A stretch of 64,000 nucleotides of DNA, taken from NCBI GenBank assembly GCA_036172245.1, contig JAYWIR010000093.1, forward strand, positions 1-64,000. The letters are read 5' to 3'. The position numbers were made by a program, and so were the translations under genes. The notes under the pieces are model-generated. The model searched no databases and was not told the DNA's origin. It saw nothing but the letters and a program-made list of their open reading frames with translations. This DNA is from Raillietiella orientalis (Eukaryota). Positions 2,536-61,573 of the stretch are shown here, piece by piece. Each line of letters opens with the position of its first letter. Position 1 is the stretch's first letter.

Positions 2536-2545
2536 TCGTGGATGC

Positions 2546-18591: not shown

Positions 18592-19053
18592 AATTTGAAT
18601 TCGCACTCTGTGCAGCAAGATAAATTCGAAAAATTACTATGAAAAACTTTCGGAGCGAATTCAAAAAGAAAAGAAAAATAGATAATATGGAAATCAATAA
18701 AGATGTGCTTGAAATCAGGATCACCGACATCGGCCTTTCTTAACGTTAAACCGTAGCAGGATGCCTAGGATTTCCACCTTCGACACTTTCTCTTGAAAAG
18801 GCATTCGAGCAATCAAGGACTATAAGTTTTCCGGCAGCGGAGCAGGAATACTCGTAAATCGTCTGTAGGCAACTGCCAGTTTTTCTCCTAAGTAAGACAA
18901 CACTGCGGTTAGAGCTTGAACGTTAGCGTCGAAAACTTTGCTGGGTTTTCTATCAGAACATTCATCGGCTGTGGCTGCTGATGCCAAAAGGAATGAAAAT
19001 GTTCAAGGCTGATTCTGCAAAATGCGTCTCAGGAATCAACAGCCTGTTGCCGT
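18592..19053 (+). repeat. About 460-bp direct duplication, copy 2
   Basis: Direct repeat of 16150-16611. Confidence 0.9.
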
Positions 19054-20600: not shown

Positions 20601-20882
20601 TTCCCTTAGGATAAGTATGTTTTCCTGTATCAAGCATTATACTGATAATTTACGGAGCAGGTTCACTCAACATTATCCTGCAGCAGTAGACAGTTTCGCT
20701 GGAAAGGTAGAGTAGCATGCTCGAACCCCACAAAAACAGACTGCATCTGCTGGGGCTTATCATGAAATCCTCAATCCTTCTTGTCAAGCATCCCGTAGTA
20801 CCGAAAAGCACTCAGTTTCTCATCTTAGTCAAGTGTTTTTGGGCGCCAGTTTTCGAAGTGGAGCGAGAATTTCAGCCTGTTT

Positions 20883-33399: not shown

Positions 33400-34306
33400 C
33401 TGCACCTGTCGCGACTATGTTCTTATGTTGCCAACAGGAGAGGACTCGAAACGAGTAAAGCACACTTTCCTGACGTGAACTTTGTTTCCACATCTTAGTC
33501 AGACGATGCTGAAGCACCTCCGTTTTAGGTGCCCGTGGCCTCGCAATTTCCGCAATATCCGGGTTTCCTCACACACCACAGATCGATGTATTCTCCATCG
33601 ATCTGTAGTCGGTGGAAAAGTCTACTTTCCTTGCGGACCGTCACATGCGCGGCGGCATACCCACTTAACGCCCTGGAATATCACAGAGCGTTCGGCTTCG
33701 CCCACAGCGTGTAAACGGTCCCGAGTTTTTCGAGCTCCTCCCTAACGGCGTTTTCGGCAATTCTCATCGTTACCCCGGTCAGGTGGATGACGATCGAGTT
33801 GTCGGCTGTGAACGGAAAGATTTTGCGGCCATTCACGGTCACCAGGTACCTCAACAACTGCTTGGTCATTCCTGCAGTTTTGCAGTTCAGCTCGACGAGC
33901 TAACCGCCACTGCGAACAGAAAGACCGAAAACTTCTTCCTCGGGCACTTTCAGTTTTCGGAACTCCGCGGCGAACATTTTCAGCATCGCGGGAGAGTGAA
34001 GCCCACCTACCTTATACAGTAGGGCCGGGTTGTATGCGTGGGCCTGATAGACTCGCTGTTCCTCGAATGGTGGGCTTCCGCGCCGCCACCGCACTCCAAG
34101 CCCTCGTCAGGGCGGGGTACGAATCTGTGGGGGAGATGGCCCCCACATCCATGGGCTGGGGGAACGAGGCTCGCCCGTCCCCCTTTTCCACTTTGACGGT
34201 GTCCTCAGGCATTTCTGCCTTCAAAACACCGCCCAAACACCAAACAACCTACAAAATCGCGCTAAAACGCAGGAGCAGCCAAAAAACACGTCTGCCGTCC
34301 TTGCGG
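33400..34306 (-). mobile_element. Family E 5' portion (5'UTR and ORF1 N-half with zinc knuckles)
   Basis: YNPALLYKVG..LSVRSGG (ORF 33900-34094); IVIHLTGVT (33681-33869); CGNCEATGHLKRRC at about 33510-33560; 5' motif at 34272-34293. Confidence 0.85.
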
Positions 34307-36422
34307 TTCACACCCGGATGTGCCGAGGCATTCATTTCTTTGAAATAAAATACATGACATTTCGCGTGGCGAACTCGAAGGTTCACCAAACCAAAACAGC
34401 TTGCTGGTTACCGGCTCCATGCCGGAGAGGTCCTTCCGATGCTCGGGGATGGGAAATAAAGAAAAACAAAAAGAAACAAACAGCTCAAATGTGGGGGGAA
34501 ACAAATGTTGTAGGGGTGGGAGGGCGGGGAAGGGATCACGATGCGCGTGGACAGGTCCTCTAGATCCTGTTCAGGATCCGCACAAGCTGAGTCCTTTCAG
34601 CGCCTAAGTGGCGCCACTTGCAGACACTGCGCGCGAAAAGGCAAGTCCAGTGTAAGGCGTTGCCGGTTGGCTGACGCCTTCTTCTGGTGGCGTTCCAAGC
34701 CGCCACTATTCCTCTGATGCAGCAGAGGAATGCTACACTACCGGGAGGGGACAAGGCGTCACTACAGAAGAGGCGCCTTAAAACGTCCTTTGGGCCGCAT
34801 CCGCGAAAGTCCAGGATCGCCGCGAGACGATCCCACAAAAAGCGGACTGCTCTGCAGTCAAGGAGAAGGTGGGGGAATGTTTCTTTTGCCCCACATCGGT
34901 CACAATCAGGATCTACAGCCCCCCGGGTGGTATGGTGCAGGCGTGCTTTGAATGGTTATCCCCAGAGTACCACAAGCAACGCCACATCCTGCCATTTCAG
35001 GGGGAGGGATGCACTGTTCCAGGACGCTGGGGGCCACTTCATCTCCTCCGGAGATAGTCCGAGTAGCTCGCCCCAGCGTCGAATTCCGTTGGGCGGGACA
35101 CTCGGCGTCGCAGCGTCAGCTAGCTGCCGAGATGTCCACGCCTTTATCGATTGTGTCCTGCCGCCTATGGTGCAGGACACGGTCCATTTCCCCTGCTCGC
35201 TACTGTCCCTGGCATTCACTAGGAAGGGCAGCACTGGGGCGAGGGGGGTTATCAAGGCCCACAGAAGCTTGTCGTGGGACTGCACGATTTCCTGCAGCGT
35301 CCAGCGGGCGTGCCTTTTCAGGCAAGTGTTCCTTGTGCCCGCCGGAACGTGGATCTTTTCCCTGGTGGAGACTGACTCGTGCAACCAGGCAGAGTAGTTC
35401 CTTGGGAGGCAGGAGATCCAGTCGTTCTCCCGAACCACAACGAAGATGCGTCGCAGCATAGAGCCACAGTGTGCTCTTCTGCAGACGCGCGCAGAAAGAA
35501 ACGACAAAAGTCCGCCGGATCCGCAGGCTCGTTGGGCCAGGAGGCGTGCTGGAACGCACCACGGCGTGTCCCACAATTCGGCCGCGAGGGCGAGAGTCCT
35601 GAATTCGAGTTGCAGTTCCATGCGCTCCAGCGTCAGTACGCCAAGTCCACCGTCCTTACGTGGAGCGCACAAGTCTTTGAGCCTCACACTGGAAATTTCT
35701 TTGCCCAAAAGGACTGTCCTTAGGAGGCCCGCTACTCTTTTTCGTATGAAATGAGGAACATGGCACACAAAAAGTAGGGGGCGAAGAAGCAGGGCCGCAG
35801 AAGCGTTCTGCATCGCGGCCCGTTCCTGCAAGTAAAACTTGCCGTCCCGGAACGGGCCGATTGCAAACTCCACCTTTTGGAGACGGTCGGACCAGGCTTC
35901 TGTCACGCAGAATTCCCCCAACGGAACGCCAAGGTACTTGAAGCACCTGCCCGTGGGGATCCCCAAGCGGATCCAGTCCGACCGTCCAGCACACGCCGAG
36001 CCGGTACAAGTTATGGACGACTTCGCCCTGTTCACATCCAGGCCCGTCCCGCGGCGCAGCAACTCGAAGAAGCCCTCGAGCGCACTCGCCGGGGTGGACC
36101 CGGGAAGCAACAGCAGAAGATCGTCTGCATAGGCCGACACGGCAAGCGTGCCGGCACACGAGCTCGGCAGGGTTGCCAGAGTTACCCTGTATGCCCTCAG
36201 CACCAACTCGAAGTAGATGCTGAAGAGCAAGGGGCTCAGGCTGTCACCCTGCCGGATACCGCGGCGCACTGGCATGCCGTACACGTGCCGGCCGCTGGAA
36301 CCAATATTTATTGACGCGTTGCGCCAGCAGGAGCGCAGGTAGGACTGGAGCACGGCCGGGAAACCCATGCGTTCCAGGAGCTCCAAAAGGAGTTCCTGGT
36401 CGACGCAGTCGAAAGCTTTACG
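34307..36422 (-). mobile_element. Family B element, 3' half (RT from KAFD onward, zinc finger, 3'UTR)
   Basis: ORF 34956-36386(-) RRGIRQGDSLSPLLF, AYADDLLL, FKYLGVP, PRKDGGLG; C-terminus in ORF 34560-34838; terminal hairpin. Confidence 0.95.
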
Positions 36423-36433
36423 CCGGCTAGAGC

Positions 36434-36455
36434 GGACGTGTTTCCTCGGTGCTCC
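36434..36455 (+). promoter_or_regulatory. Conserved 5' motif RGACGTG-N10-GCTCC (candidate internal promoter)
   Basis: Same motif and spacing at 2500-2521(-), 34272-34293(-), 45841-45862, 51119-51140, 59501-59522. Confidence 0.6.
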
Positions 36456-36516
36456 TCGTGCCGGGAACCGTCCCTAGGTGTAGGCTTCGTGTGTGGTGGT
36501 GGTCGATCAGGCAGCA

Positions 36517-38234
36517 ATGCCTGACGCGACCACCAGTACGTGTCAGGGGGCGGTGGCAACGTCGCCTCCTAAAGAAATGGAGTGCCAGGTGGCGGCGACA
36601 ACGTCGCCTCTAGAGAAGGTGGAGTGCCAGGGGGCGGCGGCAACGTCGCCTTCAGTGGCGAAAGAGGTGGGGGCGTCCGCCCCCACAAAACCGGTCCCCG
36701 CTGCAGCGCGGGCGTGGAGCGCCGTCGTGTCGGCGCCATCGCCTGCAGCCGCGGCGGAATTATCTGCCTATGTGGAAGAGGGGTATAACCCATCACTATT
36801 CTACAAGGTAGGAAATTTGTATTCATCTGAGAGTGCGCGCGCCTTTTCGAAGGGGATGCGCGCTCTCGATTTTAAAGAAGAGGAGCTCTGCGCTATGACC
36901 ATTCGTAGCGGGGGGCAGTACGTAGAGGTGATCTGCAAACATAGAGATCTGGCCCAACGTCTGCATAAAACCCCCGTGGTAATGGGGACACGCAGGCTCC
37001 TTCCCGTTACGGCGAACCACAGTATGGTGGTCCACCTTTTAGGAGTAACCGCGCGGATGCGGAAAGAACAGTTACGCGCCACGTTGGGAAAAGAAGGCAC
37101 GGTCCATGCAGTATGGACCGAGCCTAGTCCTTTCGAGGACTATACCACAGTTCAGTGCGGCCTTACGGCTGCCCGTGTAACCGTTCGGAAGGGCTCTACC
37201 CTTCCCCACAAACTGGTGGTCGGCGAAGAAAGCGTCGACCTCTGGTACGTGGGGAAGCCCAAATACTGTGGCTTCTGCAAAACGTCGGGACACCTCAAAA
37301 GGAGGTGCCCAACGTACAGTGCCTGGTATGCGGGACAATGGGCCACACGAAGGAAGTGTGTCCACAATCCGCTGTGCGCGTGGTTTCCGCGAGGAATCTA
37401 AAAAAACGCGCGCAACTGCTTCAGAAAAAACTGGCGGCGAAGGCTGCCGCTCAACCTGTGCCACCCACTCCCGTGGTCCAGGCCTCAGCCGACAGCACGG
37501 CAACGAATGCCGAAAAGATTGACAAAAGCGGTCAGGTGTTGGAATGGCAAGAAGTCACAGCGAAAAAGAAAAAAGAGTCGAAGAAAGAACGACGAATCGA
37601 AAAAAAGCTGGCCTACCAAAATAAAAAACAGCAGGTTAGCGAGAATTTAAAAGAATGCAGCGTCGTCGTGGAACGCGTGCCCGCCGAACGCCGCAAGGTA
37701 GAAATCGCTGCCACCGACGAGCAACCCACTGTTGAAAATGTCAACAGCGTGGGGAGCGAACCGGCGGAAGCATCCGTCATCGAGACCGTGATCGATGACG
37801 CCGCATTCGAGCGTGCGGCGGAGGAGCTGGCTGCATCGTTGCAGCCAGACCCCTCCAAGGCTGGCAAAAAGGCAGTGAGGCGTCCGGCCTCCACCGAGGA
37901 GTCGGTAACTTCCGACCCCGAAGCGCAGGCCGGAAACCAAGTTTCCATCTCCGCGGCACCCCGCCGGAAGGCTGGAAGGAAGTCCAGCAAACCCTGGAAA
38001 GCCCCTCTCCAGGTCGAAGGCGTGGAGATCACTTCCGACTGCGAGGGTGCCATGAGCGTGGGAGAATCCCGGGAATCGTCACTCGAGAGACCACCACGCA
38101 CAGACACGGAGGAGATGGAGGGGGTTGAAGCCGGAAAGGTACCCAAGGTGCCTGAGGAGGCTGAAACCCTAATGGTCATCTCACCCGCCTCGGAAGAGGC
38201 GGGTTCCCCCACACCGTCATCTTTCCGGCAGTAA
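36517..38234 (+). pseudogene. A1 ORF1, gag-like nucleic-acid-binding protein with two CCHC knuckles; frameshift near 37306
   Basis: CGFCKTSGHLKRRC and CLVCGTMGHTKEVC lie in different frames; 1-nt deletion relative to the copies at 43080 and 60330; basic then acidic low-complexity C-terminus. Confidence 0.9.
36541..36666 (+). repeat. Three 42-bp tandem repeats in the ORF1 N-terminus
   Basis: Units start at 36541, 36583, 36625: CQGAVATSPPKEME / CQVAATTSPLEKVE / CQGAAATSPSVAKE. Confidence 0.9.
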
Positions 38235-41200
38235 TGCCGGGAATCTCCTCCCGCCGTCGTCTGCGCATCGCCGTTTGGAACGTGAACGGCATGACAGACG
38301 CCGGCAGGAGACGAGACATGGCCGCCATTCTAGGATCGTTCGACCTTGTGCTGCTGCAGGAGATCCATGTGATCTCTGCAGAACAAGCGCAGGAGATCGA
38401 ACGCATCTACGGAGGGCGGCTGTGGTATCGGTGTGGAACATCGAGAAGCTGTGGTGTCGCCTACCTGCTTCGTCCCGCCATCGAGGCCGCCGCCCGTGGA
38501 GTTCGGTTCGAAGATCACGGTCGTGTCGGCCAGCTGACTCTCAGCTGGTCGCACTCGATCGACCTGATCGTTACGAACGTTTACGCCCCGAGCGGAGCGG
38601 ACCTGACGAAAAGGAAGGCCAGGAAAGAATTTTTCCTTGCCCTCCATCGCGACTGGTTGACCGAGGCAGGCGTGCGGAATGCCCATCTGGTTGCGGGCGA
38701 TTTTAACGTTCGTCTGAAACTGGACGGGCCGAATGACGAGCATGACCTGGTCAACGAGGTGTGCGCGGCGGTGCACACCTGTAATTTGTTGGCCAGTGTA
38801 CCAGGGATGGAGGACAACACCGATCACGTGTTCCTTGACGAGCACCAGTGCACTCGTGTGGGCAGGCGCTGCAAGTTGTTGTGCGAGTTGTCCGACCATC
38901 GACCAATCGTGATTGAAATCCATCCGCGCGACAGGGCCCCCCCCTCGTCAGCGTAGCGTTTGCCAGGGGACCGGCTGAAGCTCCCGGACTCGACGGAACA
39001 TCTCCGCACGTTTATACGGAGCTTTAGGATGCAGACACTTCAGGATTCGGACCGCTTCAAACGGTCGGTCCAGGAGTTCTGCGACCAGTTCCCTCTGCAC
39101 CGCCTACCTGCGGGATTTGGGGACGGGGTACGTAACGAACGAGCCTATCTGCAGGCTTGCCGTTACGCCAGGACCCCCGACATCCGCAGGCTGGCGGAAT
39201 ACAAAGCGGGAGCCGAGAGGCAAGCCTGGCAGTCAGTATCGGCCAGCTTGCTGGACGATCAGGGCCAGGAGCATTCGGCACCCGCTCAGATCCGCGGTCT
39301 GCTGCGGCGTTTTTATTCCTCCCTGTACGCAAGAACGACTCCCGAGCGGGATTTCTCACGAATCCTGCTTCCGGAAGGCGCTCCTGCGATCGGGGAAGAG
39401 GAGAAAAAGTCCCTCGACGAGTCTTTCACGATGGGCGAGATCATCTCGGCCATCGGAAAGCTCAAGAGGCGAAAGGCTCCAGGGGAGGAAGGCATGTCCG
39501 CGGAGTTTTATCAAACTTTCGCGGCTGAGCTAACCCCCCTGGTACATCAACTCACCTTGCTGATACGCGAGACAGGTGACGTTCCCGCCCCGTTTCGTTC
39601 GGCAAAGGTGCGGCTTCTCCCTAAGGGAGGAGATCTGAGGAGCATGAACAACTGGCGTCCCATCACAATAGTGAATGGGGATGCCAAGTTGATAGCTAAG
39701 GTTTGGGCTGAGCGTTTGGGACGGGTTGCAAACGCCTTTATCAGCCCAGAACAGACGTATGCTGTTCCGGGGCGAAGCATGGAGGCGAACCTGTTCCACG
39801 CTTCCACCTGGCTAGAACTCCAACACGAAAGGGGCTTGATGCGCACCGGGAATTCCGGTGAGTCCGTCAGTCATGCGACGGATGGTCGGATGGGTGAGGG
39901 AGCACTTGCGGTCGCTGTCGACTTGCGTAAAGCATTCGACACCGTCGACCAGAATCTCCTGCTGGAACTTTTGGAACGCTTGAGCTTCCCGGCCTCCTTA
40001 TTGGCCTATCTGCGCTCTAGCTAGCGCGATGCGCTAATCAATGTTACTTTCAGCGGGCAGACCGTGCATGGCGTACCGGTGCGACGTGGAATCCGGCAAG
40101 GAGACAGCCTGAGCCCCTTGCTCTCCAGTACCTACTTTGAGTTGGTACTGAAAGCGTTCAGGGAAACTCTGGCGCACCTGCCACATGAATGCGCCGGAAC
40201 GCCTGCGGTTTCAGCATATGCGGACGACCTCCTGCTACTGCTCCCTATGTCCACCCCGGCTTCGGCGGTCGAGAAGTTCTTCGACCTGCTGAATCGAAGA
40301 ACCGGGCTTACGGTAAACAGTGCGAAGTCGTCCGTGATGCCAGTTGGTGCGGCGTGGGCAGGGCAGTAGGACTGGGTCCGTTTGGGGATCCCCACGGTGA
40401 GGTACTTCAAGTACCTTGGTGTGCCGTTGGGGGACTACTCCCCTGCGGAATCGTGGTCCCGCTGCCTTCAAAAAGTAGAGACGGCTATCGGCCCGTTCCG
40501 AGGCGGCAGGTTTTTCCTGCCTGAACGGGCCGCGGTTTGGAACATGTTCGCGGCTCCTCTCCTCCGTTCCCTGTTGTTTGTTTGCCCCCCCACAGAGAGG
40601 ATCAAAAAGCGGACGTAGGACCTCCTCCGTATCGCCCTTTGGGGCAACGGGAGGCCCCGAGTCCGCCTGAAGGACTTGTGCGCTCCGCGTCGGGACGGTG
40701 GTCTCGGCCTCCTGACATTGGAGCGGCTGGAGCTGCAGCTCCAGTTCCGGATTTTGGCACTTGTGCCGGAGTTGTGGTGTACCTGTTGGTGCGTCCCTGC
40801 ACGTCTCCTCCTTCTGCAAGCCACCGGCAAGACGGGACTTACGTCGTTTCTTGCACTCCATCGAAGCCGCATCAACCGATGTGGGCTTCAGCTACGGAGG
40901 GTGGCTGCGCTGACTAGGAAAAATCAAGGATGGATCACTTGTCTCCCCGCGAACGGTAGTGCCTGGTTGCAGGAAACCGTTCGTACGTGGGGACAGTTCG
41001 GCATGCAACCCTCCCATCAGGAATGAAGGTTCTTGTTTGGGTGTTACAGAAGTTGCACGCTCCGTGAGATCCTGGAGGATCCTAAGAAGAGAGCGTGGTC
41101 AGGAAGAACCCCCCTCGCTGCTGCGCTGGGCTCCCTAGTAGAACATCAGGACAGCGATGTTGCGGCGAAGTGAAAGGTTACAATAAAAATCTCCGGGAAG

Positions 41201-41818
41201 GAGAAGAAGCAGAGAGAGTGGAAGACGAGCCAGCTAACTGATGCTGCGTCCCCGAGTGCGCCTCCTAATGGACTTCTGCGCTGGGGAGCGCTGCTGGATG
41301 TTCCGATTGAACATCTGAAGTGGCCCCCGATTCTTATGAACACTTCCATCCTCCCCCTAAAATGGCAGGAGTGGGCATTCCTGTTGCAGCACTGGGGACT
41401 CCCCTGCAACGCCCGTCGACACCACTGGACCTGGGGAGTGGTGGATCCCAATTGTGTAAGGTGCGGGGAACGGGAGTCCCTCCCCCACCTCCTAGTGGAT
41501 TGTGTTGCCCTTCGGCCCCTTTGGTTCCGCTTTGCCGCGGCCATCGGTATCCCTTGCGGCAACCCCAGGGTCGCACTAAAAGCCTTCTTCGTTGCCGACG
41601 CCCTGCGGCCAGCGTCCTCGATAGCAGCCTTGTGCAGCCTTCGTGGGATCGTCGCCGCCTGGAGCACGGCGACGGGAGGACCTAGCGATCAGGAAGCCAA
41701 CCAGTGCGCCTCCGAATTCCTGAGGAGGGCGTCGCGATGGCCCCACCTGGATGTTGACAACAAACAAGAGCTTGCCAGCATCCTGAGAGGGATGATGCGG
41801 CCCCAGCAGCAACAGTGA
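38234..41818 (+). pseudogene. A1 ORF2: APE endonuclease, reverse transcriptase, C-terminal zinc finger; several premature stops
   Basis: WNVNG, LQE, GDFN, SDH; KAPG, NWRPIT, KAFDTVD, GIRQGDSLSP, YADD, KYLG; CVRCGERESLPHLLVDC. In-frame stops end at 38956, 40024, 40369, 40618, 41026. Confidence 0.95.
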
Positions 41819-42010
41819 TCCCTTCCCGTTCCCTCCCACCCTTTGCTTTTTTTTTTTGTTTAGTTTTTTTTTGTTTTTCCCCTTTCCCCTGCTGCCTTAG
41901 TGGACCGTACCGGTCTAGAAACCGGTGAATTGGCAGCCGCCGTGGTTCTTAGCTTCTGGCTGGAGCATTGCCACAGCCATTAATAATTTGTTTACAAAGT
42001 TTATTTTTTT

Positions 42011-42041
42011 AATAAACGACCCGGAGAAATCCGGGTGAAAA
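42011..42041 (+). terminator. 3'-terminal AATAAA plus CCCGG/CCGGG hairpin (element 3'-end signal)
   Basis: aataaa-cga-cccgg-agaaat-ccggg-tgaaaa; equivalent motif at nine other element ends. Confidence 0.75.
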
Positions 42042-42055
42042 TCGAAAGCTTTACG

Positions 42056-43434
42056 TCGGCTAGAGCGGACTGGTTTCCTCGGTGCTCCTCGTGCCGGGAA
42101 CCCTCCCTAGGTGTAGGCTTCGTGTGTGGTGATGGTCGATCAGGCAGCAATGCCTGACACGACCACCAGTGCGTGTCAGGGGGCGGTGGCAACGTCGCCT
42201 CCTGAAGAAATGGAGTGCCAGGTGGCGGCGGCAACGTCGTTTCTAGAGAAGGTGGAGTGCCAGGGGGCGGCGGCAACGTCGCCTTCAGTGGCGAAGGAGG
42301 TGGGGGCGTCCGCCCCCACAAAACCGGTCCCCGCTGCAGCGCGGGCGTGGAGCGCCGTCGTGTCGGCGCCATCGCCTGTTGCTGCGGCGGAATTATCTGC
42401 CTATGTGGAAGAGGGGTATAACCCATCACTATTCTACAAGGTAGGAAATTTGTATTCATCTGAGAGTGCGCGCGCCTTTTCGAAGGGGATGAGCGCTCTC
42501 GATGTTAAAGAGGAGGAGCTCTGCGCTATGACCATTCGTAGCGGGGGGCAGTCCGTAGAGGTGATCTGCAAACATACAGATCTGGCCCAACGTCTGCTTA
42601 AAACCCCCGTGGTAATGTGGACACGCAGATGCCTTCCCGTTACGGCGGACCACAGTAAGGTGGTCCACCTTTTTGGAGTTACCGCGCGGATGCGGAAAGA
42701 ACAGTTACGCGCCGCGTTGGGAAAAGAAGGCACAGTCCATGCAGTATGGACCAAGCCTAGTCCTTTCGAGGACTATAATACAGTTCAGTGCGGCCTTACG
42801 GCTGCCCGTGTAACCGTTCGGGAGGGCTGCACTCTCAAGGAAGAGGTTCGCGCCGCGTCGGAGGAATATCGTACGGTCCACGCGCAGTAGTCCAAAGTTA
42901 CTTCTTTTGAGGACTACACAAGGCTGCAACACGGACTCACGGCTGAAAGCGTGACCGTTCGAAAGGGCGGCACTCTTCCCCACAACCTGGTGGTCGATGG
43001 CGAAACCTTCGACCTATGGTAAGTGGGCAACACGAAATACTGCGGCTTCTGCGATACGTCGGGCCACCTCAAAAAGAGGTGTCCCAACGTGCAGTGCCAA
43101 GTATGCGGCACAATGGGGCACACGAGGGAGGTGTGCTCAAAAGCAGCAGTGCGGGTGGTTTCCAAGAGAAACCTAAAAAACGCGCCCGGCTGCTGCAGAA
43201 AAGGCTGGCGGCGAAAGTTGTCGCGAAAGCTGTGCCACCAGCGTCCAAGGCCTAGGCCACATTCGAGACACCAGCGAACAACGGCGAAAAAGACGAAGGA
43301 TCCGGTCAGGAGATTGGATGGCAGGTGCCAGAGGCCAAAAAATCAAAGGAAAGAAGGTTGGAGAAAAAAATCGTCTACCAACCGAAGAAGAAAGAGCACG
43401 GTAGCGCGATAATTAAAGAGTGCAGCGTCGTCGT
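42056..43434 (+). mobile_element. Family A copy A2: 5'UTR and partial, chimeric ORF1, tandem to A1
   Basis: ORF 42126-42890 is nearly identical to A1 ORF1; internal duplication at about 42837; knuckles CGFCDTSGHLKKRC and CQVCGTMGHTREVC. Confidence 0.93.
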
Positions 43435-45827
43435 TTATTTCCCGGTTGTGGCAAGACGTTTATTAATAATGCCTGCTGGAAACTGTGTTCCTAGGTAAGG
43501 GGAACAGAAGATGGAGAGGAGGGTTCCCGGCACTCAGGCAGGGCACACTCAAAGTTCGGAACGGGTGGGAAAGCACAATAAAGAAATAAACAGGAAGCAA
43601 GGGCAAGGACAGGGGTATGCAAATCAACCGTTCCTATTCTAAGAACCGGCGGTGAATGCCGCCGATCTCCGTCCACACTTCCGCTTGAAGATGTGGCCAC
43701 CTGGCAGCCATTTGCAGGTTGCAGGCTGCATTCCTTGCCGTGACCTCACGACGGCGCGGACGCAGCAGACGATTACGACGACCGCTCCAAGAGAAAGACC
43801 GCCACGCGTATACAAGCGGTGCATCCATTCCTTTGCGGTGTGTCCGGGGTGCAGGAGCGCTGAAGACAGCCGCTGCCACAGCTCCTGGAGGGCACCGCAT
43901 TCAAATAGAAATGCGGAAGCGATTCCACCGCTCCGAATGTTGCGCAGTTCGGGGACGCACCTCTCCCGGAAACGAGGTGCGCGCGCACGTTGCAGTACAA
44001 ACCCCAATGCACCAGCACAAAAGCGTCCTGTTTCCAACGAAGGGGGAAGACTGTCGTGTCCAAGCACGCAGAAGGGACCACAAGTTCTACGGTGGGCACC
44101 CCGAGGATCTCGCTCCACAAGAAAAGTCCCTTGGCACGAAGGCGAGGAGTGGCAGTGTCTGTCAGCTCGCAAGTCCTCCAGCCGCCCAGCAGTCAGGTTT
44201 CGCCTGCGATTTTGCAAACTACCTCCCACCTCGCCTACAGGTCACTGTCGTCTTCCACCATGAATGCACACAGTGCTTCGGCGAGTGGCGTAGCGGCTAG
44301 GTGTGTCCACTGGTTCTCGTCTTCAAGCACCTCCCCCACAAAACAATATGGGAAAGGTTCACGCAACGGAGTTCCAAACGGGACACATCCTGTTGCGCTG
44401 CCCAGGACAATAAGGCTTCCTGCCTCCAGGCGTTGAAGTAAGTCGGCCGGCAGGAGATCCACGCATGCTTTCCCATAAGCGAGGAGAGCTGCTTCAGTGG
44501 GAAGCCGAATTTTCTCTGGGCGCACTCCGTGCGCAGATGCAACGCCCATAGTCCGTCGCCACCCGTGCAGCGCCGCAGCAGCAGCCGCGCCGGAGCACAC
44601 CACGAAGTAGTCCAGAGCTGCGCACAAGGTGCCAGCATGCGGAACTGCACTAGCAGTCCGATCCGCTCCAGCGTCAGGATGCCCAATCCTGCATCCCGCC
44701 GAGAAGCCGCCAAGTCCTTGAGGCGTATCCTAGACCTCGCCGGTCCTCACAAGACGTTTCGCAACAGGCGTTGCGCCCGAAGCTTAGCCGAGTAGGGAGG
44801 GGGACAAACAAAAAAGAGGGCACGGAGGAAGGGGGCAAAGAAAATGTTGCACACGAAGGCCAGTTCCAACAGGAGGAACCTGCCGCCTTGGAACAGGCCC
44901 TGAGCAGTGTTCGCCTTGCGAAGGCAGTCCGACTACGCTTCTGATGGACAGAAGGCGCCCAAAGAAACGCCAAGGTACTTAAAGCACCTGCATGTTGGGA
45001 TCCCCAGGCGGATCCAATCGGACTGCTCATCCCACGTAGAGACAACCGGTACAACGGTTGATTTCGTCCTGACGAAAAGACCCCCTCCCCGACGAATGAG
45101 CTTAAAGAAGTCCTCGAGCCTGGACGCCTGGGTGGACATGGGCAGCAAAAGAAGAATGTCGTAAGAATAGGGGGCCATGGCCGAAGTTCCCGGACAGAAG
45201 CTCGGCAGGATGGCCAGCGTCAGCTTGCACGCACTCAGCACCAACTCAAAGAAGATGCTGAAGGGCAAGGGGATTAAGCTGTCTCCCTGCTTGATACTTC
45301 GCCATATGGGAACGCCGTACACGTTGCGCCCGCTGAAAGAGATACAGCATAACGCGTGGCGCCAGTAGGAGCGCAAGTAGGCGATGAGGTGCGTCGGGAG
45401 GCCAAAGCGTGCTAGAAGCTCCAGAAGGAGGTCCTGGTTTACGCTGTCGAACGCTTAGCAGAGATCGACGGCGACTGCTAAGGTGCCTGGCGTTCCGTCG
45501 TGCCTCGAGCACCGCCACTTCCCTTGGCAGCGGCGCTTTCGCCTGCCTGGCTCTTCTGCGCCACGCGCTGCTGCAACTCGAACCATGTTCGTGCGAAGAA
45601 GAGATTCGCGTCCATGGACCTCCCCGGAACAGCATACGTCTGCTCCGGACTTACCAAGGACTCTGCGAGTCTCCCTAGCCGCGCGACCCAAAGTTAGGAG
45701 AACGACTTGTCGTCCGAATTCATCAAGGACGCAGTTGTTAAGGTGACGCAAATCCCCGCCTTTCGGCAGGAGCCGCTCGTTTGCTGATCCGAAAGATGCA
45801 GGAACATCTCCGGTCTCCCGCATCAGC
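43435..45827 (-). mobile_element. Family C copy C1 (RT to 3' end; catalytic YADD mutated to YSYD)
   Basis: LMRETGDVP, IKQGDSL..APYSYDILLLL, FKYLGV; zinc-finger region; terminal motif at 43435-43464. Confidence 0.93.
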
Positions 45828-48800
45828 GCCGGTCGCGTACGGACGTGCTTTTGCGTCGCTCCGTGGTAGACTGACTCTTGTGAGTTTCTGTTCCACTGTG
45901 CTTCTGTGCTGCTATGGGAGCAAAGAGGAACATCAGCCGCAAGAAGGGAACGGTACCTGATCCTGAGATGGTGGTTTTGGCTGCTAGCCGGGAGCCACTG
46001 TCCTCGCTGACGGCGAGGACGTTCTCCCAGGTCGCTGTCCTCGCGGCTACAATGGGACCTTCGCCCGATAGCCCTGAGCTGCAAGCGTATGTAGCAAATG
46101 GCTACACGCCTGCATTCAGGTATAAGGTGAGTATCCTTATACCTGAGCGGGTTGGGCGCGATTTTGTCCAGGAACTCAGACGGATTAGAGTTCAGAGAGG
46201 CAAGCTGGAGTCCATCATGCCCATGAGTGGGTGCGGCTACTGGAAGGTGTCCATTAAGGACGCTCTTCTTACGCAGCGTTTGCTGCACACGCCGCTGTTC
46301 ATTCGTGGGCAGGAAATACTCCCCATCACAGCGGACCAGTCGTTCGTTGTCCGGCTGAGTAGAGTGAGAAAGGGCCTTTCGTACCGCCAGGCCGCGGAGG
46401 CCCTTGAAAAATTCGCCACCGTTCATGCGCTTTGGAAGTTGCCGAACCTTGCTGAGGGTTTGGAAGACCACCACAGCGGGGTCGCGCTGGTGCGAGTGAC
46501 GATGGCGGATCGCCGGGCAATGCCCACGAGACTGCAGGTGGATGGAATGACCGTCCGCCTGTGGTTTGCAGGGCAAACCCTTGTGTGCGCGGAATGCGGT
46601 CAGGAGGGTCACCGCCTTACGAAGTGTCCTCGGCCGCTTGCCGTTACTGCCACGAGCCCGGGCACACAAAAGAGACGTGCCCGGAGCTCCTTTGAAAAAA
46701 CGAAAAGCGCAAGAAGGAAGCGCGTTTCGCATCACGAAATAAACTCCGCGAATCGTGGGAAAAAAACCTCAAAACTTCGGAGAGCGTTGCGAAAACCGCA
46801 AACGCGCCTGCGCAGAAAACTCTTCCTATCCTCCACAAAAAAGGGGAGAAAAACATTAAAAAAAAACGCATCTCGGCGGAGTCTCTGGCTACCGAGCCGA
46901 AGGAAGCTCGCGAGCAATGCGAGATCTCACCGAAACCTCTTAGCGAAATTTTCAATGCAGGAGAGAGTGCGCCGGAGGGCAAGAAGCCTCCTACTGTCGG
47001 CATCACGACCGCGAATCCTCCTATCAAGGCCTCGGCAAGTGGCGAGGAATGCAATCGCTCGCCTGAAATGGGCAAATCGCGCCCGCGGGCAAAGTACTCC
47101 GTGCCGGCTAACCCTACTGCGGCCAAGATGCCTCCGGCGCCGAGTGCCGCGACGAAACAGCCGGCAAACCCGCAGCCCTCGCGCGCGGACGCAGCGCCTA
47201 CTGCGGCCAAGGAAGAAACTGCTAGAGCGAACACAACCGCTACAGCAGTGCCCCTGCGGTCGCAAAGGCAACGCGCGAATCCTCCCGTCTGCAAGAGGCA
47301 GCGCCATTCGCGATCGCTAAGAGAGTCGCTTACGACTGCGCGGAGGCAGCACTTTAAGAGGCAGCCATGGCAACGCCTTTTACAGCCGCGGGCGCAGCGC
47401 CATCTCAGGAGGGCAAACAACTGCGACGCGAAGAAAGACGGCTGGATACAGGTGAGAAAGGTTATTAAAAAAAAACCGTCAAGGTCCTCGCAGCTCTGTG
47501 TGAAGGTGAGTGGGCAAAAGAAACCCGCGAAACCATCCCAAAAAAAGATTGCGATCCTTTCCTTCTGTGCAGTCGTCCTCTCGCGGATGGAGCGGAAAGC
47601 TGCTGCTGCAGCTAAAAGGACGAAAGTCCCAGCCGCAGTAGCAGAAAGCGCTAAGAAACAGGCAGCAAATGATTCCTGGAAACAGAAGCAGCGCCTGGCA
47701 AGCGCTCGACTGTCGGATTCTGATCCAGAGTTCGACAGAATGAGCACACAGCGCGAAACCCGTCCGAAACCGCGCAATCGCCTCCCGAAGACCCGCAAGC
47801 GCGTTGTTGCCGAAGAGGAACTGTTGCCGGGGAGCAAAGAGGAGGGAATGGGCCTCACCTCTGAGCTACCGGCAACAAGCAGGGCGGCTTCGAATGGAGA
47901 TGTCCAGTCTCCAAGATTTGCCGTTCTGTCTCGTGACCACTCGCCGGACATGGCGAGAAACCTGTGCTCAACTTCCCAGCCTTAATGCAGGAAGTCGCCT
48001 CTCTTCGTCGGTTCAGCGTAGCCTGTTATAACGTCAACTTGCTGCGCAGGGACGAAAAGAGGCGCGGCGTGTCAGACACCCTGCGACACTCCGACTTGGC
48101 GATCCTTCAGGAGATGCATCACATCTCCGACACGGAGGTTGCCGAAATTGAACAGCGCGCGGGTGGCACCCTGTACTGGCGAGAAGGTTCTGCACTATCG
48201 TGCGGAGTCAGGTTTGTCGTTAATAGTGGGATAACGGGAGCGGTGCGCAGCGTTCGATTCGACCAGGAAGGGAGAATAGGCCATCTTGTACTGAAGTGGT
48301 CAGATTTAATCGACCTCGTCCTGACGAACGTCTACGCGCCGAGCGGCTTTTATCGGCGCGCCGAAAGAATCGAGTTCTTCGACGTGCTGGAGAGCCAATG
48401 GCTTAGGAACTTTGGAGCCGGAGTGGCACATCTCGTCGCAGGGGACTTCAACGTCCACCTGCTTCCCAACGAGACGCGGTCCCTGGCGGAACGGTCGCGG
48501 ATGGAATAGGCATGCGGGTCGGTGCACGCGCGTAACTTGGAAGCCGGCGAGCCTGGACTGGAAAGGTGAGTGGATCACGTCTACCTCGATGAACACCTAC
48601 TCCCACGAGTGGGAATGAGAGGCAGGGTGCCGTCTACGTTATCGGACCATGATAGGCTGGAGTTCGAGCTACTCCCGCCGGGCAAGGGACCTCCAAACAA
48701 TGTTTGGAGGATGTTGCCGGATTGGCTGAGTCACCCGGAAGCGGCGGAGCATCTTCGCCAGTTCCTTCGCGGCTTTGCCATCCGGCAGCTCGCAGACTAG

Positions 48801-49597: not shown

Positions 49598-51102
49598 CTT
49601 CCCCGTGTCCAGTGATAACGGCGTGCATTGTAGAGGAGTCCCCAGTGCAACAGCATCAGCGCCGACTCTTGCCATTTTAGGGGAAAGATCCTTGTTTCAG
49701 TTCTTACTGGGGGCCACTTCAGGTCATCAGTCGTGATGCAGAGCAGCTCTCCCCATTTTTTCAGTCTTTGCACAAGGACCCTATGGGTTGTGGCGTCCGC
49801 CAACTGTCCCATTGTCCAAGCGCTCAACAATTTTTCGCTGCCTGCGATATGGCAAGACACTTAGCACCTCGGCGTCCGGCTGCTGACGATTGCCCTACGT
49901 AATAAAGTAGCACCGTCGCCAGGCAGGTCGTCTCTGCCCACGTGCTTCTGGCTGGAAACTCCAGGATCTCGCGTAGAGTGCAGCGGGCGTATCGGCCGCG
50001 TAGCAGACTATTCCATGTCACGTGGCTTTTCTTATTCACAACAGCCTACGTGCCAACTGTTTCATCCAGTTATGCGCTGGAGTTGACGGGGGTGCAGATC
50101 ATCCACGCATTCTCCCTTACAAGGGTGGCTACTCGTCCGAGTAGAAGGCCGCATCCTCTTGTCTTCCTTCCACGACATAAAAGAAGAGATGCGAGTCCTC
50201 CCGTTCCCGATGCACGTCTGGCAAGAAGGCTGGCAGGAACACACCAAAGAATTCTCCATAGCTTGGCTGCGATGGCCAAGGTTTGCCATCGCAGCTGAAA
50301 TTCCATGCGCTCCATTGTCAGGAGGCCTGAACCACCATCACGACGCGGAGCGCACAAGTCCATCAAAGGGACTCAGGGACTCCCCTAGCACCAAAGGGCG
50401 ATGCGCAAGAGGTCCTTTGTCCTCTTTTTTATTTCTTTGGGGACGGGGCAAACAGAAAGTAGGGAAGAAAGGATGTGGGTAGCAAAAGCGTTCCATGGTG
50501 CGGCCCGTTCCGGCAAGTGGAACTTGCCCTCCAGGAACGGATGAATCTCGAAATCCACTTTCTAAAGACGGTCTGACCATGCTTCTAACGGGCAGAAGTC
50601 CACCAGCGGAACGCCAAGGTACTTCAGATGTGTGCCCGCCGGGATCTCCAGGCGGATCCAGACAGGCCGTTCTACTCACGTCGCACCAACTCCACTCATC
50701 GACGATTTTGCCCTGTTGATCCGTAGCCCTGTCCTAGGTCTTAGCAGGTCGGAGAAATGTTCGACTACCGTTGCCGAGGCGGACATTGGGAGCAGTAGCA
50801 AGAGATCGTTGGCATATGAGGAAAGGACAGGCCTACCGGGGCACCAGCTTGGCAAGGCAGCCAAAGTCATCCTGTATGTTCTTAGAACCAACTCGAAGTA
50901 GGTGCTAAAGAGCAGCGGACTTAGACTGTCAACCTGCCGAATCCCGCGGCGCAACGGCAAGCCGTACACGTTCTGCCCTCTGAAGCAGATGTTTGTTAGG
51001 GCGGAGCTCCAGCAGGAGCGCAAGTACGCCGTTCAAGTAGGAGGGAAGCCCATGCGACGCAAAAGCTACAAAAGGAGATCCTGGTCCACGCCGTCGAACG
51101 CC
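49598..51102 (-). mobile_element. Family G RT C-half fragment starting at the AFD motif
   Basis: RRGIRQVDSLSPLLF..SSYANDLLL (ORF 50676-51023); APRRDGGSG; FPLKWQE. Confidence 0.9.
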
Positions 51103-52260
51103 ACATGCGCTCGAGGGCGGACGTGTTTTCCCGGTGCTCCTCGTGCCAGGAAGTCTACTCTAGTGTAAGTGTCGTGTTATTCGGTGGTCGATCAAACAGC
51201 GATGCCTGACGCGACCACCAGGGATGACCAGGGAAGCAGCGCAAACGCCGCCCCCTGGCTCTTCAGAGGCAATGGAGGTAGAGGCATCCATATCCACAGA
51301 ATCGGTCCCCGCTGCAGCGTCGTTGTGTGGACGCCATCGCCTGCAGCCGCGGCGGAATTGTCGGCCTATGTGGAAGAGGGGTACAACCCTTGAATTTTTT
51401 ACAAGATAGGCGATCTGTATTCTTTAGAGTGTGCGCGCGCCTTTTCGAAGGGGATGCGCGATTTCCATGTTAAAGAGGAGGAGCTCAGCGCTATGACCAT
51501 TCGCGGCGAGGGTCAGTACGTTGAGGTCATCTGCAAACAAGCAGAGCTGTTTCAACGACTGCTTTAAACCCCCGTGGTGATGGGGTCGCGCAGGATCCTC
51601 CCCATTAAGGCAAACCGTAGCATTCTGGTCCACATAATCGGCGTGACCGCGAGGATGCGTAAATAACAGGTTTGCGCCGCTTTAGAACAATATGGAACTG
51701 TCCACGCGCAGTAGACGAAGTTCACTCCTTTTAAGAACTACACGGGGCTGAAACAGCCTCACGGCTGCATGCGTGACCGTTCGGGAAGGCTGCACTCTTC
51801 CCCACAAACTGGTGATCGATGACGAAACCGTCGCCCTATGGTATGTGGGGAAGCCGAAATACTGTGGCTTCTGCAATACGTCGGCCCACATCAGAAAAAG
51901 GTGTCCCAAACTGCAGTGCCAAGTATGCGGCGCAATGTTTCACACGAGGGAGGTGTGCCCAAGAGCAGCAGTGCGGGTAGTTTTCAAGAGAAACCTTAAA
52001 AAACGCGCTCGGTTGCTGCACAAAAGGCTGGCGGCGAAAGCTGCCGCGAAGGCTGTGCTACCCGCGCCAAAGACCTAGGCCGCACCCGAGACTCCGAAGA
52101 ACAACGCCGAAAAAGTCCAGGGATCCTTCCAGAAGCCCGATTGACAGGTGGCAACGGCCAAAAATAGCAAAAAGAAGAGAAGGTTGAGGAAAAAAATCGC
52201 CTACCAACAGAAGAAGAAAGTGCAGGGTAGCGCGATAACTAAGGATTGCAGCATCGTCGT
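51103..52260 (+). mobile_element. Family A-like 5' fragment (degenerate ORF1)
   Basis: 5' motif at 51119-51140; LSAYVEEGYNP; CGFCNTSAHIRKRC and CQVCGAMFHTREVC. Confidence 0.9.
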
Positions 52261-57374: not shown

Positions 57375-59489
57375 TTCACACCCGGATGTGCCGGGGCATT
57401 TATTTCATTGAAATAAAATTACATCGAAATGTCGCGTGGCGAACCCGAAGGTTCACCACTCCAAAACAGCTTCCTGGTTACCGGCTCCATGCCGGAGAGG
57501 TCCTTCCGATGCGCGGGGATGGGAAATAAAGAAAAACAAAAAGAAACAAAAAGCTCAAATGTGGGGGGGAACAAATGTTGTAGGGGTGGGAGGGCGGGAA
57601 GGGATCACGATGCGCGTGGACAGGTCCTCTAGATCCTGTTCAGGATCCGCACAAGCTGAGTCCTTTCAGCGCCTAAGTGGCGCCACTTGCAGACACTGCG
57701 CGCGAAAAGGCAAGTCCAGTGTAAGGCGTTGCCGGTTGGCTGACGCCTTCTTCTGGTGGCGTTCCAAGCCGCCACTATTCCTCTGATGCAGCAGAGGAAT
57801 GCTACACTACCGGGAGGGGACAAGGCGTCACTACAGAAGAGGCGCCTTAAAACGTCCTTGGGGCCGCATCCGCGCAAGTCCAGGATCGCCGTAAGACGAT
57901 CCCATAAAGGGCGGATGGCACTGCGCTAAATGAGAAAGGGGGGGAAAGTTTCTTTTTCCCCAAACCGGTCACAATTAGGATCCACAGCCCCCCGGGTGGT
58001 ATGGTGCAGGCGTGCTTTGAATGGACATCTTCAGAGTACCACAAGCAACGCCACATCCTGCCATTTAAGGGGGAGGGACCCACTGTACCAGGACGCTGGG
58101 GGCCACTTCATCTCCTCCGGAGATAGTCCGAGTAGCTCGCCCCAGCGTTGAATTCCGTGGGGCGGGACACTCGGCGTCGCAGCGTCCGCTGGCTGAGGAG
58201 ATGTCCACGCCTTTAACGGTTGTGTCCTTCCGTTTACGGTGCAGAAAATGGTCCATTTCCCCAGCTCCCTACTGTCCTTAACATTGATAAGGAAGGGCAG
58301 CACTGGGGCAAGAGGGGTTATCAAGGACCACATAAGCTTTTCGTGGGACTGCACGATCTTCTGCAGCGCCCAGCGCGCATGCATTTTAAGCAAGTGTTCT
58401 TCGTGCCCGCCGGTACGTAGATCTTTTCCCAGGTGGACACTGACTCGTGCAACAATCGCCAGTAGTTCCCTGGGAGGCAGGAGATCCAGGCGTTCTCATG
58501 TACCACAACGTCCATCCGACGCAGGAGAAAGCCGCCGTGTGCTTCTCTGCAGTTGCGCGCAAGCAGAAACGACAAAAGTCCGCCGAATCTGTAGGCTCGT
58601 TGGGCCAGGAGGCGTGCTGGAACGCACCAAGGCGTGTCCCACAATTCGGTTGCGAGGGCGAGAGTCCTGAATCGCAGTTGGAGTTCCATGCGCTCCAGCG
58701 TAAGTACGCAGAGTCCTCCGTTCTTACCTGGAGCGCACAAATCTTTGAGCCTCACATGGGACTTCCCTATGCCCCAAAGGACTATCCTCAGAAGGCCCGC
58801 TGCTCGTTTTCGAGTAAAATAAGGGGCCAGGCAAACAAAAAGTAGGGGGCGAAGGAGGGGGGCCGCAAACGCGTCACACACCACGGCCCGTTCCTGCAAG
58901 TAGAACTTGCTTTCTTGGAATGGACCTATCGCCAACGCTGTTTTTTAAAGACGGTCGGACAAGGCTTCTGCTGCGCAGAAGTCCACCGACGGAACGTCAA
59001 GGTACTTGAAGCACCTGCCCATGGGCATCCCCAAGCGGATCCAGTCCGACCGTCCAGCCCACGCCCAACCGACAATGACCATGGACGACTTCGCCCTGTT
59101 TACCTCCAGGCCCGTCCCGCGGCGCAACAACTTGAAGAAGTCCTCGAGCGCACTCGCCGGGGTGGACCCGGGAAGCAGCAGCAGAGATCGTCTGCATAGG
59201 CCGACACGGCAGGCGTTCCGGCACACGAGCTCGGCAGAGTTGCCAGAGTTACCCTGTATGCCCTCAGTACCAACTCGAAGTAGATGCTGAAGAGCAAGGG
59301 GTTCAGGCTGTCACCCTGGCGTATGCCGGGGCGCACTGGCACGCCGTACACGTGCCGGCCGCTGAAAGCAACATTTATGTACGCGTTGCGCCAGCAGGAG
59401 CGCAGGTAACACCGGAGCACGGACGGGAAACCCATGCGTTCCAGGAGCTCCAGAAGGAGATCCTGGTCGACGCAGTCCAATGCTTTACG
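57375..59489 (-). mobile_element. Family B copy B2, 3' half (paralog of 34307-36422)
   Basis: DCVDQ..GIRQGDSLNP..AYADDL; C-terminal peptide identical to that in ORF 34560-34838; terminal hairpin at 57375-57404. Confidence 0.95.
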
Positions 59490-61573
59490 TTGGCTAGAGC
59501 GGACGTGTTTCCTCCATGCTCCTCATGCCAGGAAGTCTCCCCCAGTGCAAGCGTCGTGTGGTTCGGTGGTCGATCAGGCAGCCATCCCTGACGCGACCAC
59601 CAGGGATGGCCAGGGGGCAGCGGCAACGCCGCCCCCAGAGGCGATGGAGAGCCAGGGGGCGGCGGCAACGTCGCCCCCGGAGGCGATTAAGGTGGGGGCA
59701 TCCGCCCCCACAGAATCGGTCCCCGCTGCAGCGCGGGCGTGGAGCGCCGTTGTGTCGGCGCCATCGCCTGCAGCCGCGGCGGAATTGTCGGCCTATGTAG
59801 AGGAGGGGTACAACCCCTCATTGTTATACAAAGTAGGCAATTTATATTCTTCAGAGAGCGCGCGCGCCTTCTCGAAGGGCATGCGCGCTCTCGATGTGAA
59901 AGAGGAGGAGCTCAGCGCTATGACCATCCGAGGCGGGGGTCAGTACGTTGAGGTCATTTGCAAACATGCAGAGCTGGCCCAACGACTGCTAAAAACCCCC
60001 GTTGTGATGGGGACGCGCAGGCTCCTCCCCACTACGGCGGACCGCAGCATGGTGGTCCACCTGTTAGGCGTAACCGCGCGAATGCGCAAAGAACAGGTTC
60101 GCGCCGCTCTGGAACAGTTCGGAACGGTCCACGCGCAGTGGACGAAAGTTAGTCCTTTCGAGGACTACACGGGGCTGCAACACGGCCTCACGGCTGCGCG
60201 CGAGACCGTTCGGGAGGGCTGCACTCTTCCCCACAAACTAAAGGTCGAAGGAGAAACCGTGGACCTCTGGTATGCGGGGAAGCCGAAATACAGCGGCTTC
60301 TGCAATACGTCGGGCCACCTCTAAAAGAGGTGTCCCAAAGTGCAGTGCCAAGTATGCAACACAATTGGTCACACGAGGGAGGTGTGCCTAAAAGCAGCAG
60401 TGCGGGTGGTTTCCAAGAGAAACCTTAAAAAACGCGCCCGGCTTCTGCAGAAAAGGCTGGCGGCGAAAGCTGCCGCGAAGGCTGTGCCACCCGCGCCCAA
60501 GACCCAGGCCGCAACCGAGACATCAGCGACCAACGCCGAAAAAGTCGAGGGAGCCGGCCAGGAGACTGGGTGGCAATTGGCAACGGCCAAAAAATCAAAG
60601 GAGAGGAGAATGGTGAAAAAAATCGCCTATTAACAGAAGAAGAAAGAGCAGGGTAGTGCGATAATTAAAGAGTGCAGCGTCGTCGTCGAACGCGTTCTCG
60701 ATTTTGCCGAACGTTGCCAGAAAGAACTCGCCGCTACCGACGACAACCCCTCTTTTCACTCTGTCGACAGCCAGGGGAGCGAGCCGGCGGCGGCGTCCGT
60801 CATCGACACCACCATCGATGACGTGGCTTCCGAGCGGGCCGCGTAGGAGCTGGCAGCCTCGTTGCAGCCAGAACCCTCCAAGGCTGGCAAGAAGGCCGTA
60901 AGGAGTCCGGCCTCCCCTCAGGAGTCCCCCACTTCCGACCCCGAGGTGGAGGCCGGAAGCGCAGCCTCCGTTTCCACGGCACCGCGCAAGAAGGCTGCAC
61001 GTAAGTCCACAAAGCCTAGGAAGCTCGTCTCCTCCGTCGAAGGGGAAGAGATGGCTTCCGCAACCTACAGTGCAATGAGCGTGGGAAACTCGCGGGACCC
61101 GTCGCCTGAGATACTCCCAGGCGCGGAGACCGAGGGGATGGAGGGGGTGGAGGCCGAACAGGTGCCTCAGGTGGCTGAGAAGGCCGAAAGCTCCATGGAC
61201 ATCCCGCCCGCATCGCAAGAGACGGGCTTCCCCACACCTTAATCTTCCCAGCAGTAATGCCGGGAATCTCCTCCCGCCGTCGTCTGCGCATCGCCGTTTG
61301 GAACGTGAACGGCATGACAGACGCCGGCAGGAGACGAGACATGGCCGCCCTTCTGGAGTCCTACGACCTTGCGCTGCTGCAGGAGATCCACGTGATCTCT
61401 GCAGAACAAGCGCAAGAGATCGAACGGATCTCCGGAAGGCGGCTGTGGTATAGGTGTGGGAGACCGAAAAGTTGCGGTGTCGCCTACCTGCTTCGGCCAG
61501 CGGTCGAGGCCGCGGCTCGGGGCGTGCGGTTCGACGATCACGGTCGTGTCGGCCAGCTGACTCTCAGGTGGTC
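59490..61573 (+). mobile_element. Family A copy A3: 5'UTR, ORF1 with stops, APE N-half
   Basis: ORFs 59434-60324, 60340-60633, 60862-61242; TAATG at 61255-61259; MPGISSRRRLRIAVWNVNG identical to A1. Confidence 0.93.

Follow-up and report, generated by a model that had tools for sequence, protein, structure and literature searches.

Families of L1/Tx1-like LINEs in the genome of Raillietiella orientalis carry a common motif at their 5' ends and insert at fixed coding motifs of one another. The motif, its spacing, the family-specific targets, the short heads of the elements and, in family A, the on-target full-length copies were all observed directly. The best explanation, and a modestly favoured one, is a split promoter: the element would contribute a module resembling the downstream promoter element (DPE), the target DNA would contribute the start site, and the RNA would carry a tag of target sequence. 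Overall, the sequences make such a promoter plausible. A good Inr is supplied by the target in family A and a few other families, not in most. A broader reading is more tentative, possible rather than probable: a guild of at least 13 LINE families would have shared out the conserved codons of its own ORFs as insertion sites and would use split promoters, and tagged RNA, by permitting precise full-length joints at the right codon only, would lock both integration and expression to parasitising sister elements.

The window is the whole analysed stretch of 64,000 nt (contig JAYWIR010000093.1, positions 1 to 64,000), and coordinates without a contig prefix refer to it. Its relevant features are:

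2500..2547, minus strand: 5' end of family F, separated by 22 nt from the 3' tail of the copy before it; motif at 2520
34272..34306, minus strand: 5' end of family E; it contains the motif at 34292 and follows in tandem on the 3' tail of a same-type copy
34307..36422, minus strand: 3' half (ORF2 aa 573-1177) of an E-type host LINE, cut at DxxKAFD, its 3' end in tandem before E
36405..36410, plus strand: Inr-like GCAGTC with A36407 as the predicted +1, part of the target and 2 nt ahead of the insertion nick
36409..36419, plus strand: 5' junction of A1, the target-homologous 5' copy of the target duplication (antisense K-A-F-D)
36420..36433, plus strand: element-specific head of A1, including G36430 at predicted +24
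36434..36441, plus strand: RGACGTGY box, DPE-like, predicted +28 to +35
36441..36455, plus strand: pyrimidine-rich 10-nt spacer and GCTCC box
36420..42041, plus strand: full-length LINE A1 (5' UTR, ORF1, ORF2, 3' end)
from ATG 36517, plus strand: ORF1 of A1, broken
~38228-41788, plus strand: ORF2 of A1 (APE-RT-zf-RVT), interrupted by stops
42011-42041, plus strand: 3' end of A1 (AATAAA, hairpin, GAAAA), without poly(A)
42042..42088, plus strand: 5' end of A2 with a decayed motif (GACTGG at 42068); A1 is a tandem insertion in its target duplication
45819..45862, plus strand: 5' junction of family D with the motif at 45842; target-homologous at 45819-45829 (antisense ORF2 aa ~447-450), then the head
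51092..51140, plus strand: 5' junction of family A; a third host is interrupted in antisense KAFD, the motif is at 51120, and predicted +1 is C instead of A
59472..59522, plus strand: 5' junction of A3 with GCAGTC (A59474), antisense KALD, and the motif at 59502

A common motif at the 5' ends of LINEs

Six exact copies of GACGTG-N10-GCTCC are present in the window: 2520(-), 34292(-), 36435, 45842, 51120, and 59502. With up to one mismatch allowed there are 7 matches against 1.36 expected, a number reached in 0 of 100 shuffles. In the whole genome (210 Mb) a loose pattern gave 976 matches (control: 194) and the tighter GACGTGBTYTN6GCTCC gave 577 (control: 7). The genome-wide matches form clusters within contigs and at contig ends. 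Over 657 kb of clusters, 50 box pairs have a 10-nt spacer and 3 have a 9-nt spacer. The motif positions and fixed spacer given in a preliminary description of this DNA therefore stand, and the variant it placed at 42068 is present as well, in a decayed state. The spacer-length counts contain a further peak of 11 pairs at 16 nt. An additional decayed motif-like 5' end (GACGTG, T run, GCTCTC) is found at 10466 (+).

Genome-wide, the motif is nearly always a feature of L1/Tx1-like LINE 5' ends. Of 22 isolated matches inspected, 17 were clear LINE 5' ends, 3 were unclear, and 2 were not LINEs. The carrier families are far more numerous than the four originally proposed, with about 30 5'-UTR clusters among 100 5' ends. 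The motif lies near the 5' end, with about 3-15 nt of the element's own head ahead of the box. The apparent 5' ends described earlier do lie close to the motif, but they include target-duplication sequence. The conserved stretch is also longer than was noted (G-N-G-C-R-GACGTG-TTTT..CGCTCC), and further down the UTR the families have weaker features in common.

The box equals a known consensus. In LINE promoters of Drosophila, RGACGTGY is conserved as a downstream element spanning about +29 to +36 (PMC2377424, PMC1636488), the Drosophila DPE1 motif is CGGACGT (PMC1779564), and DPE promoters have G at +24, +28, and +29 and CGS at +27-29 (PMC8384218). Positions here are counted from GACGTG; with R-1 taken as +28, G-5 becomes +24 and C-2 becomes +27. 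In a logo of 28 family-weighted clusters, from which 4 non-LINE clusters had first been dropped and in which GACGTG itself was selected by the search, four positions outside the search pattern are conserved: G-5 (0.79), G-3 (0.76), C-2 (0.82), and R-1 (0.95). Further upstream of G-5 the base composition is near background. G-5 is found in 26 of 32 family representatives; as the families are related, the conservation signifies constraint against diverged neighbours and the counts are not independent draws. Both the DPE consensus (RGWYV(T) / RGACGTGY) and the G+24 / CGS +27-29 register are thus matched, which supports, at the level of sequence, the earlier proposal that the box is DPE-like.

A role as a promoter element of host genes was rejected, given the clear LINE 5' ends among the isolated matches and the lack of enrichment in the host. 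Pairs of TCAGTY and CGGACGT fall at DPE spacing in 3 of 35 cases with 7 expected (35 pairs against 50 in the control; one narrow pattern in unannotated sequence, of low power). The host genome encodes TBP and a second, TRF2-like paralogue (G000:C4:2881220-2882098, minus strand). The host is presumably an animal, and both genes look arthropod-like. A plant G-box reading of ACGTG is unlikely in an animal-looking host with these genes.

The elements that bear the motif encode a zinc-knuckle ORF1 and an ORF2 with APE and RT, in some cases with a weak zf-RVT match. Together with target duplication, these features place them in the L1 group (L1/Tx1) of non-LTR elements. Among solved structures the best relative is human L1 ORF2p (E 1e-43). 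Close protein relatives were sought, and just 5 matches were obtained, 24-27% identical, with the nearest named one at 24%. Over RT-containing stretches, ORF2 pieces from different families share about 45-75% identity with a single intact reference. The 3' end has the same layout in all families: AATAAA is followed by a CCCGG..CCGGGT hairpin and then by a 5-nt tail that differs from family to family, and poly(A) is absent. There are 71 such hairpin-tailed ends in 657 kb; examples in the window are 42011-42041, 2547(-), 13579(-), 52266(-), and 57380(-).

Individual copies have peculiarities of their own. In the A1/A2 subfamily, ORF1 starts with 2.7 copies of a 42-bp tandem repeat (36540-36651 and 42173-42284). 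A3 stops in APE (aa ~111) and joins ORF2 aa 355 of another family (38550 / 61573-61579). Minus-strand copies at 43736-45828 and 52560-54982 match the joined ORF2 piece at 91% identity, and the joint itself is a deletion or recombination join.

Insertion at the coding motifs of sister LINEs

Each family occupies its own fixed coding motif of sister LINEs, and at least 13 distinct sites in ORF1 and ORF2 were found, mostly in antisense. Family A inserts antisense at RT DxxKAFD, family B antisense at DxKL, and family D at ORF2 aa ~447-450. The sites of other families are at aa ~62, 70, 277, 294-303, 360, 1057, and 1075. In sense orientation, one family inserts at APE GDFN and family E inserts in ORF1.

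Across 11 clusters, 43 of 63 3' ends are at the modal site of their cluster (null mean: 18.4, maximum: 24). This share is 6/20 in one cluster that merges several families and 37/43 in the other ten. Full-length 5' ends of family A were tallied by eye, 135 being listed of 185: 120 are in antisense KAFD, 13 are in tandem behind an A 3' end, and 2 are elsewhere. The KAFD hosts are many and different. Among 50 listed full-length 5' ends of family B, 44 are on target, 1 is in tandem, and 5 belong to another family with its own fixed site. A LINE is regarded as target-specific when more than 20% of its flanks are at one target (PMC4494074). The figures here are above that threshold: about 67 of 100 3' ends and 120 of 135 listed 5' ends in A, 44 of 50 listed in B, and 43 of 63 overall.

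Target choice also explains the recurring GCAGTC. It consists of the antisense Asp-Cys codons that follow KAF in the host RT, and it recurs because the flank is a fixed, sequence-specific target. Within the window A1 is inserted into the 5' duplication of A2, and tandem R1 copies likewise insert into the 5' duplication (PMC2718515). Twin-priming inversion was rejected as the origin of the head-to-head junctions: A1 runs on through its own KAFD, and the antisense piece belongs to another family (~71% identical).

A second site of family A was observed in sense orientation, at the TCGA of VDLxKAFD in RT (G000:C8:425531, C1:11508048, C31:3678, C31:9878), and the duplications there always start with TCGA. 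Three near-identical family A junctions lie in a far more divergent RT with KAFE (G000:C89:138184, 172733, 230235); targeting therefore extends beyond the guild. Some family A junctions have host deletions that end in AG/GCAG just upstream of the nick (G000:C5:2440094, C161:18032, C427:386). Such junctions could have arisen when a cDNA ending at -28 annealed further upstream, or the host sequence could have been deleted later.

The predicted start site and the extent of family A RNA

When 5' junctions are linked with 3' junctions, the nick falls 16-27 nt ahead of GACGTG (+/-1 for the A's of the tail; one link at 12), and none of the linked junctions has an offset of 28 nt or beyond. Ahead of the box, elements of family A have a head of about 12-15 nt and those of family B one of about 3 nt. 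Given heads this short, the +28 register would place +1 in target DNA for every family. Promoter function and a +1 at -28 are predictions from the consensus only.

How well target DNA would serve as an Inr varies. A36407 and A59474 are each 27 nt before the G of GGACG, and Pfam RVT_1 matches cover both flanks (34959-36473(-) and 59103-59522(-)), so that the spacing and the antisense-RT location of GCAGTC reported for A1 and A3 were reproduced. The 51120 copy has C at the same position. After tandem junctions had been dropped, CA was found at predicted +1 in 14 of 19 family A flanks, and TCAKTY in 0/19. Of 21 target sites, 5 have YA at the spacing, and 2 of 54 other offsets score as high; the excess is slight, and most target sites do not show it. 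A general Inr at the spacing is not supported. In family B the Inr-like position is off by one. The family D junction (45819..45862) has no Inr-like site at the predicted spacing, in agreement with the preliminary description, which had exempted D from exact spacing.

For family A, evidence that RNA extends into the target comes from junction alleles. A Phe-to-Val variant (KAVD) at -22 in the duplicated stretch occurs at 18 of 135 listed 5' junctions, in at least 7 host types. At intact sites it was found in 0/51 and 0/86, genome-wide there are 5 cases in intact or 3' context, and among on-target 3' junctions it is present in 2 of ~67 (p=0.023). Because it is frequent at 5' junctions and rare in intact targets, the variant most likely travels with the element. 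A point against this is its occurrence on two head types, and some KAVD-bearing copies may be segmental duplicates.

The distribution of off-site copies is uneven: about 29 of 100 A-type 3' ends are off-site versus 2 of 135 listed full-length 5' ends (Fisher 2e-10). A further 4 of 100 A-type 3' ends are at the sense site. Ten nominally off-target 3' ends were examined, of which 3 belong to other families and 7 to family A. All 7 off-site or alternate-site A copies are 5'-truncated, six of them with duplications of 14, 15, 11, 15, 16, and 16 bp. The two off-site full-length A copies keep target-like bases to -19/-22 and to -25; for the latter (C57) the 3' junction is beyond the contig end and a host deletion is possible.

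Of 54 A junctions examined, 52 are in exact register. Mismatches to the nearest host peak at -27, -22, -21, and -18, counted after junctions whose best host is below 88% identity (22/59) were dropped. The donor base at -28 was found in 0 of 37 junctions, and no donor signal was seen upstream of -27 at A junctions, though little is expected there. G at -27 is more frequent at junctions (10/16 vs 6/35, p=0.003), a comparison confounded by host age. It does not amount to proof that RNA reaches -27, as the intact AA hosts are a young burst and the junction hosts are older. Taken together, the junction alleles suggest that the RNA of family A starts 22-25 nt or more ahead of GACGTG, a lower bound on its 5' extension that applies to family A only. 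The same junction-allele logic has been applied to melanogaster-type R1. The earlier idea of a start supplied by the flank thus gains indirect support from the family A junctions, and for every family it follows from the geometry if the box acts at +28; the fixed nature of the target had been missed.

The split promoter would operate as follows. The box, the T-rich spacer, and CGCTCC at a fixed distance would form a conserved downstream core-promoter module of an L1/Tx1-like LINE radiation. The endonuclease of a family would nick a fixed coding motif of a sister LINE, and reverse transcription would proceed from the hairpin-tailed 3' end. Pol II would start about 27 nt upstream of the box, in target-derived DNA 2-13 nt beyond the nick, giving the RNA a short target-like tag at its 5' end that covers the target duplication. 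The cDNA end could then anneal to the overhang of the cut target, producing a precise full-length joint, mostly at the right site only. Such joining would rebuild the same start region, with the box again 27 nt from target DNA. Among the points against this scheme are the sparse Inr, the strict Inr requirement of the DPE (in Drosophila the DPE requires a spaced Inr), the absence of a host pair excess, and the 0/37 at -28.

If this scheme is right, a LINE would link the choice of target, the assembly of its promoter and its precise full-length integration in a single loop. Site specificity could then persist although the targets, being sister elements, move themselves, and a host could tolerate many active families, as each insertion would break a competitor and spare host genes. 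Related APE endonucleases with different known targets and precise joints would make an APE specificity code testable.

Alternative explanations and related systems

The strongest competitor, rather unlikely in itself, is read-through: the RNA would come from transcription that enters the element from outside, whether cluster-wide, host antisense, or driven by a neighbouring element's promoter. The box would then be an accessory cis-element uncoupled from any Inr at +28, and the CAGTC spacing in family A would be a by-product of the target's codons. Most targets have no Inr at the spacing, Inr-DPE1 pairs are not in excess in the host, the junction evidence is a lower bound on RNA extension, and HeT-A and R2 provide precedents, all of which would fit. 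However, G+24 and C+27 are conserved though the search did not select them, and because the targets are mostly antisense, host sense transcription cannot drive the elements. Donor signal beyond -27, with little expected there, was not found. Nor did trimming by an HDV-like ribozyme receive support: the nested double-pseudoknot fold (R2/L1Tc type) was detected in 0 of 32 representatives with a purpose-written descriptor, and there was no Rfam match.

It is improbable that the motif acts in the RNA or RNP instead, as a signal that ORF1p/ORF2p would bind for cleaving the second strand or for joining; its form might be a GNGCG/CGCTC hairpin. GNGCR is complementary to YGCTC and paired in most predicted folds (fraction 0.7-1.0), apparent duplications are shorter in full-length than in truncated copies, and the R1 5' end has been proposed to direct cleavage. 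Against this, covariation was seen at 0 of 7 proposed pairs, with 6 A-C mismatches at -1/+15, and the mean folding z is -0.48, with 1 of 32 below -2. Without covariation, a fold signal, or an Rfam match, an RNA hairpin or ribozyme was rejected as a candidate; on such a reading the match to a known DNA promoter consensus would also be a coincidence.

Still less probable is that a transcription factor binds the box and sets the start within the head of the element itself, with the flank contributing nothing. YY1 plays such a role for human L1. A flank without a general Inr would suit this, and CGCTC resembles the reverse of the GAGA-type motif GAGAGCG listed alongside DPE1. Head length varies (~3-15 nt), however, and in family A both the donor-type alleles upstream of the head and the on-target restriction need RNA that starts upstream. 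Lastly, chance or one old duplicated junction is very improbable, even though A1 and A3 have 4.2 kb in common across the junction at 83% identity: 577 matches against 7 in the control, the many different RT hosts with synonymous differences, the ~30 UTR clusters that keep the 10-nt spacing, and the 43/63 modal 3' ends against a null maximum of 24 all contradict it, and a single-junction origin is already refuted by host diversity.

The components of the proposed split promoter are known singly: some LINEs have DPE boxes, R1 and R2 make target-tagged transcripts, HeT-A is transcribed from its flank, and Tx1 targets transposons (PMC4494074). In the open-licence literature searched no account was found of this combination, of LINE families targeting each other's RT/EN codons, of a DPE completed by target DNA, or of a guild dividing its own coding motifs. 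The promoters of Drosophila jockey, Doc, F, G, and I have the same 8-nt consensus near the LINE 5' end (PMC2377424, PMC1636488, PMC4748587), and the G+24/C+27 register of DPE promoters (PMC8384218) is fitted by the present elements. The DPE is also reported in SART1, TRAS1, and L1Tc Pr77. In the Drosophila LINEs, however, the start and Inr are inside the element, whereas here there are about 3-15 nt of own sequence and +1 would be target DNA. The present elements further differ in the fixed TTTT..CGCTCC extension and in being L1-like, not jockey/I-like.

Melanogaster-type R1 (and R2) is a site-specific LINE in which upstream target sequence in the transcript anneals for precise 5' joining, and R1 resembles the present elements in its tandem insertion into the 5' duplication and in the target tags on off-site copies (PMC2718515). 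Its target is rDNA, with a 9-bp deletion, whereas here the targets are sister-LINE coding motifs and a duplication is formed. The available text of PMC2718515 describes no DPE/target split for R1/R2. LINEs of the Tx1 clade are APE-type and insert into specific transposons (Tx1 in Tx1D, Tx1-Mar in Mariner-N4, Tx1-8_Crp in LTR elements), and the same source discusses flank-dependent transcription for SINEU (PMC4494074). Unlike these, the present families use at least 13 sites in the ORF1/ORF2 of sister families, one per family, mostly antisense. Transcription of HeT-A at Drosophila telomeres likewise begins in the upstream neighbour (PMC1636488). The HeT-A promoter, however, is wholly in the 3' UTR of the upstream copy, in head-to-tail arrays, while here the conserved box belongs to the element that is transcribed, and what lies next to it is mostly coding sequence in antisense.

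Zepp of Coccomyxa/Chlorella also forms GC-rich clusters of nested LINEs (PMC3446292), but it is a single family, in an alga, and each chromosome has one cluster; the present clusters, several per contig, are made by many families of an animal genome and involve family-specific codon targets. The LINE nests are GC-rich islands, several per contig (G000:C1:8.01-8.08 Mb, C5:2.34-2.58 Mb, C5:3.48-3.60 Mb, and many contig ends). Within the window GC is lower at 7000-33000. This stretch contains old LINE fragments (17042-21899) and a 476-bp duplicate with 92% identity (16145-16617 / 18585-19059).
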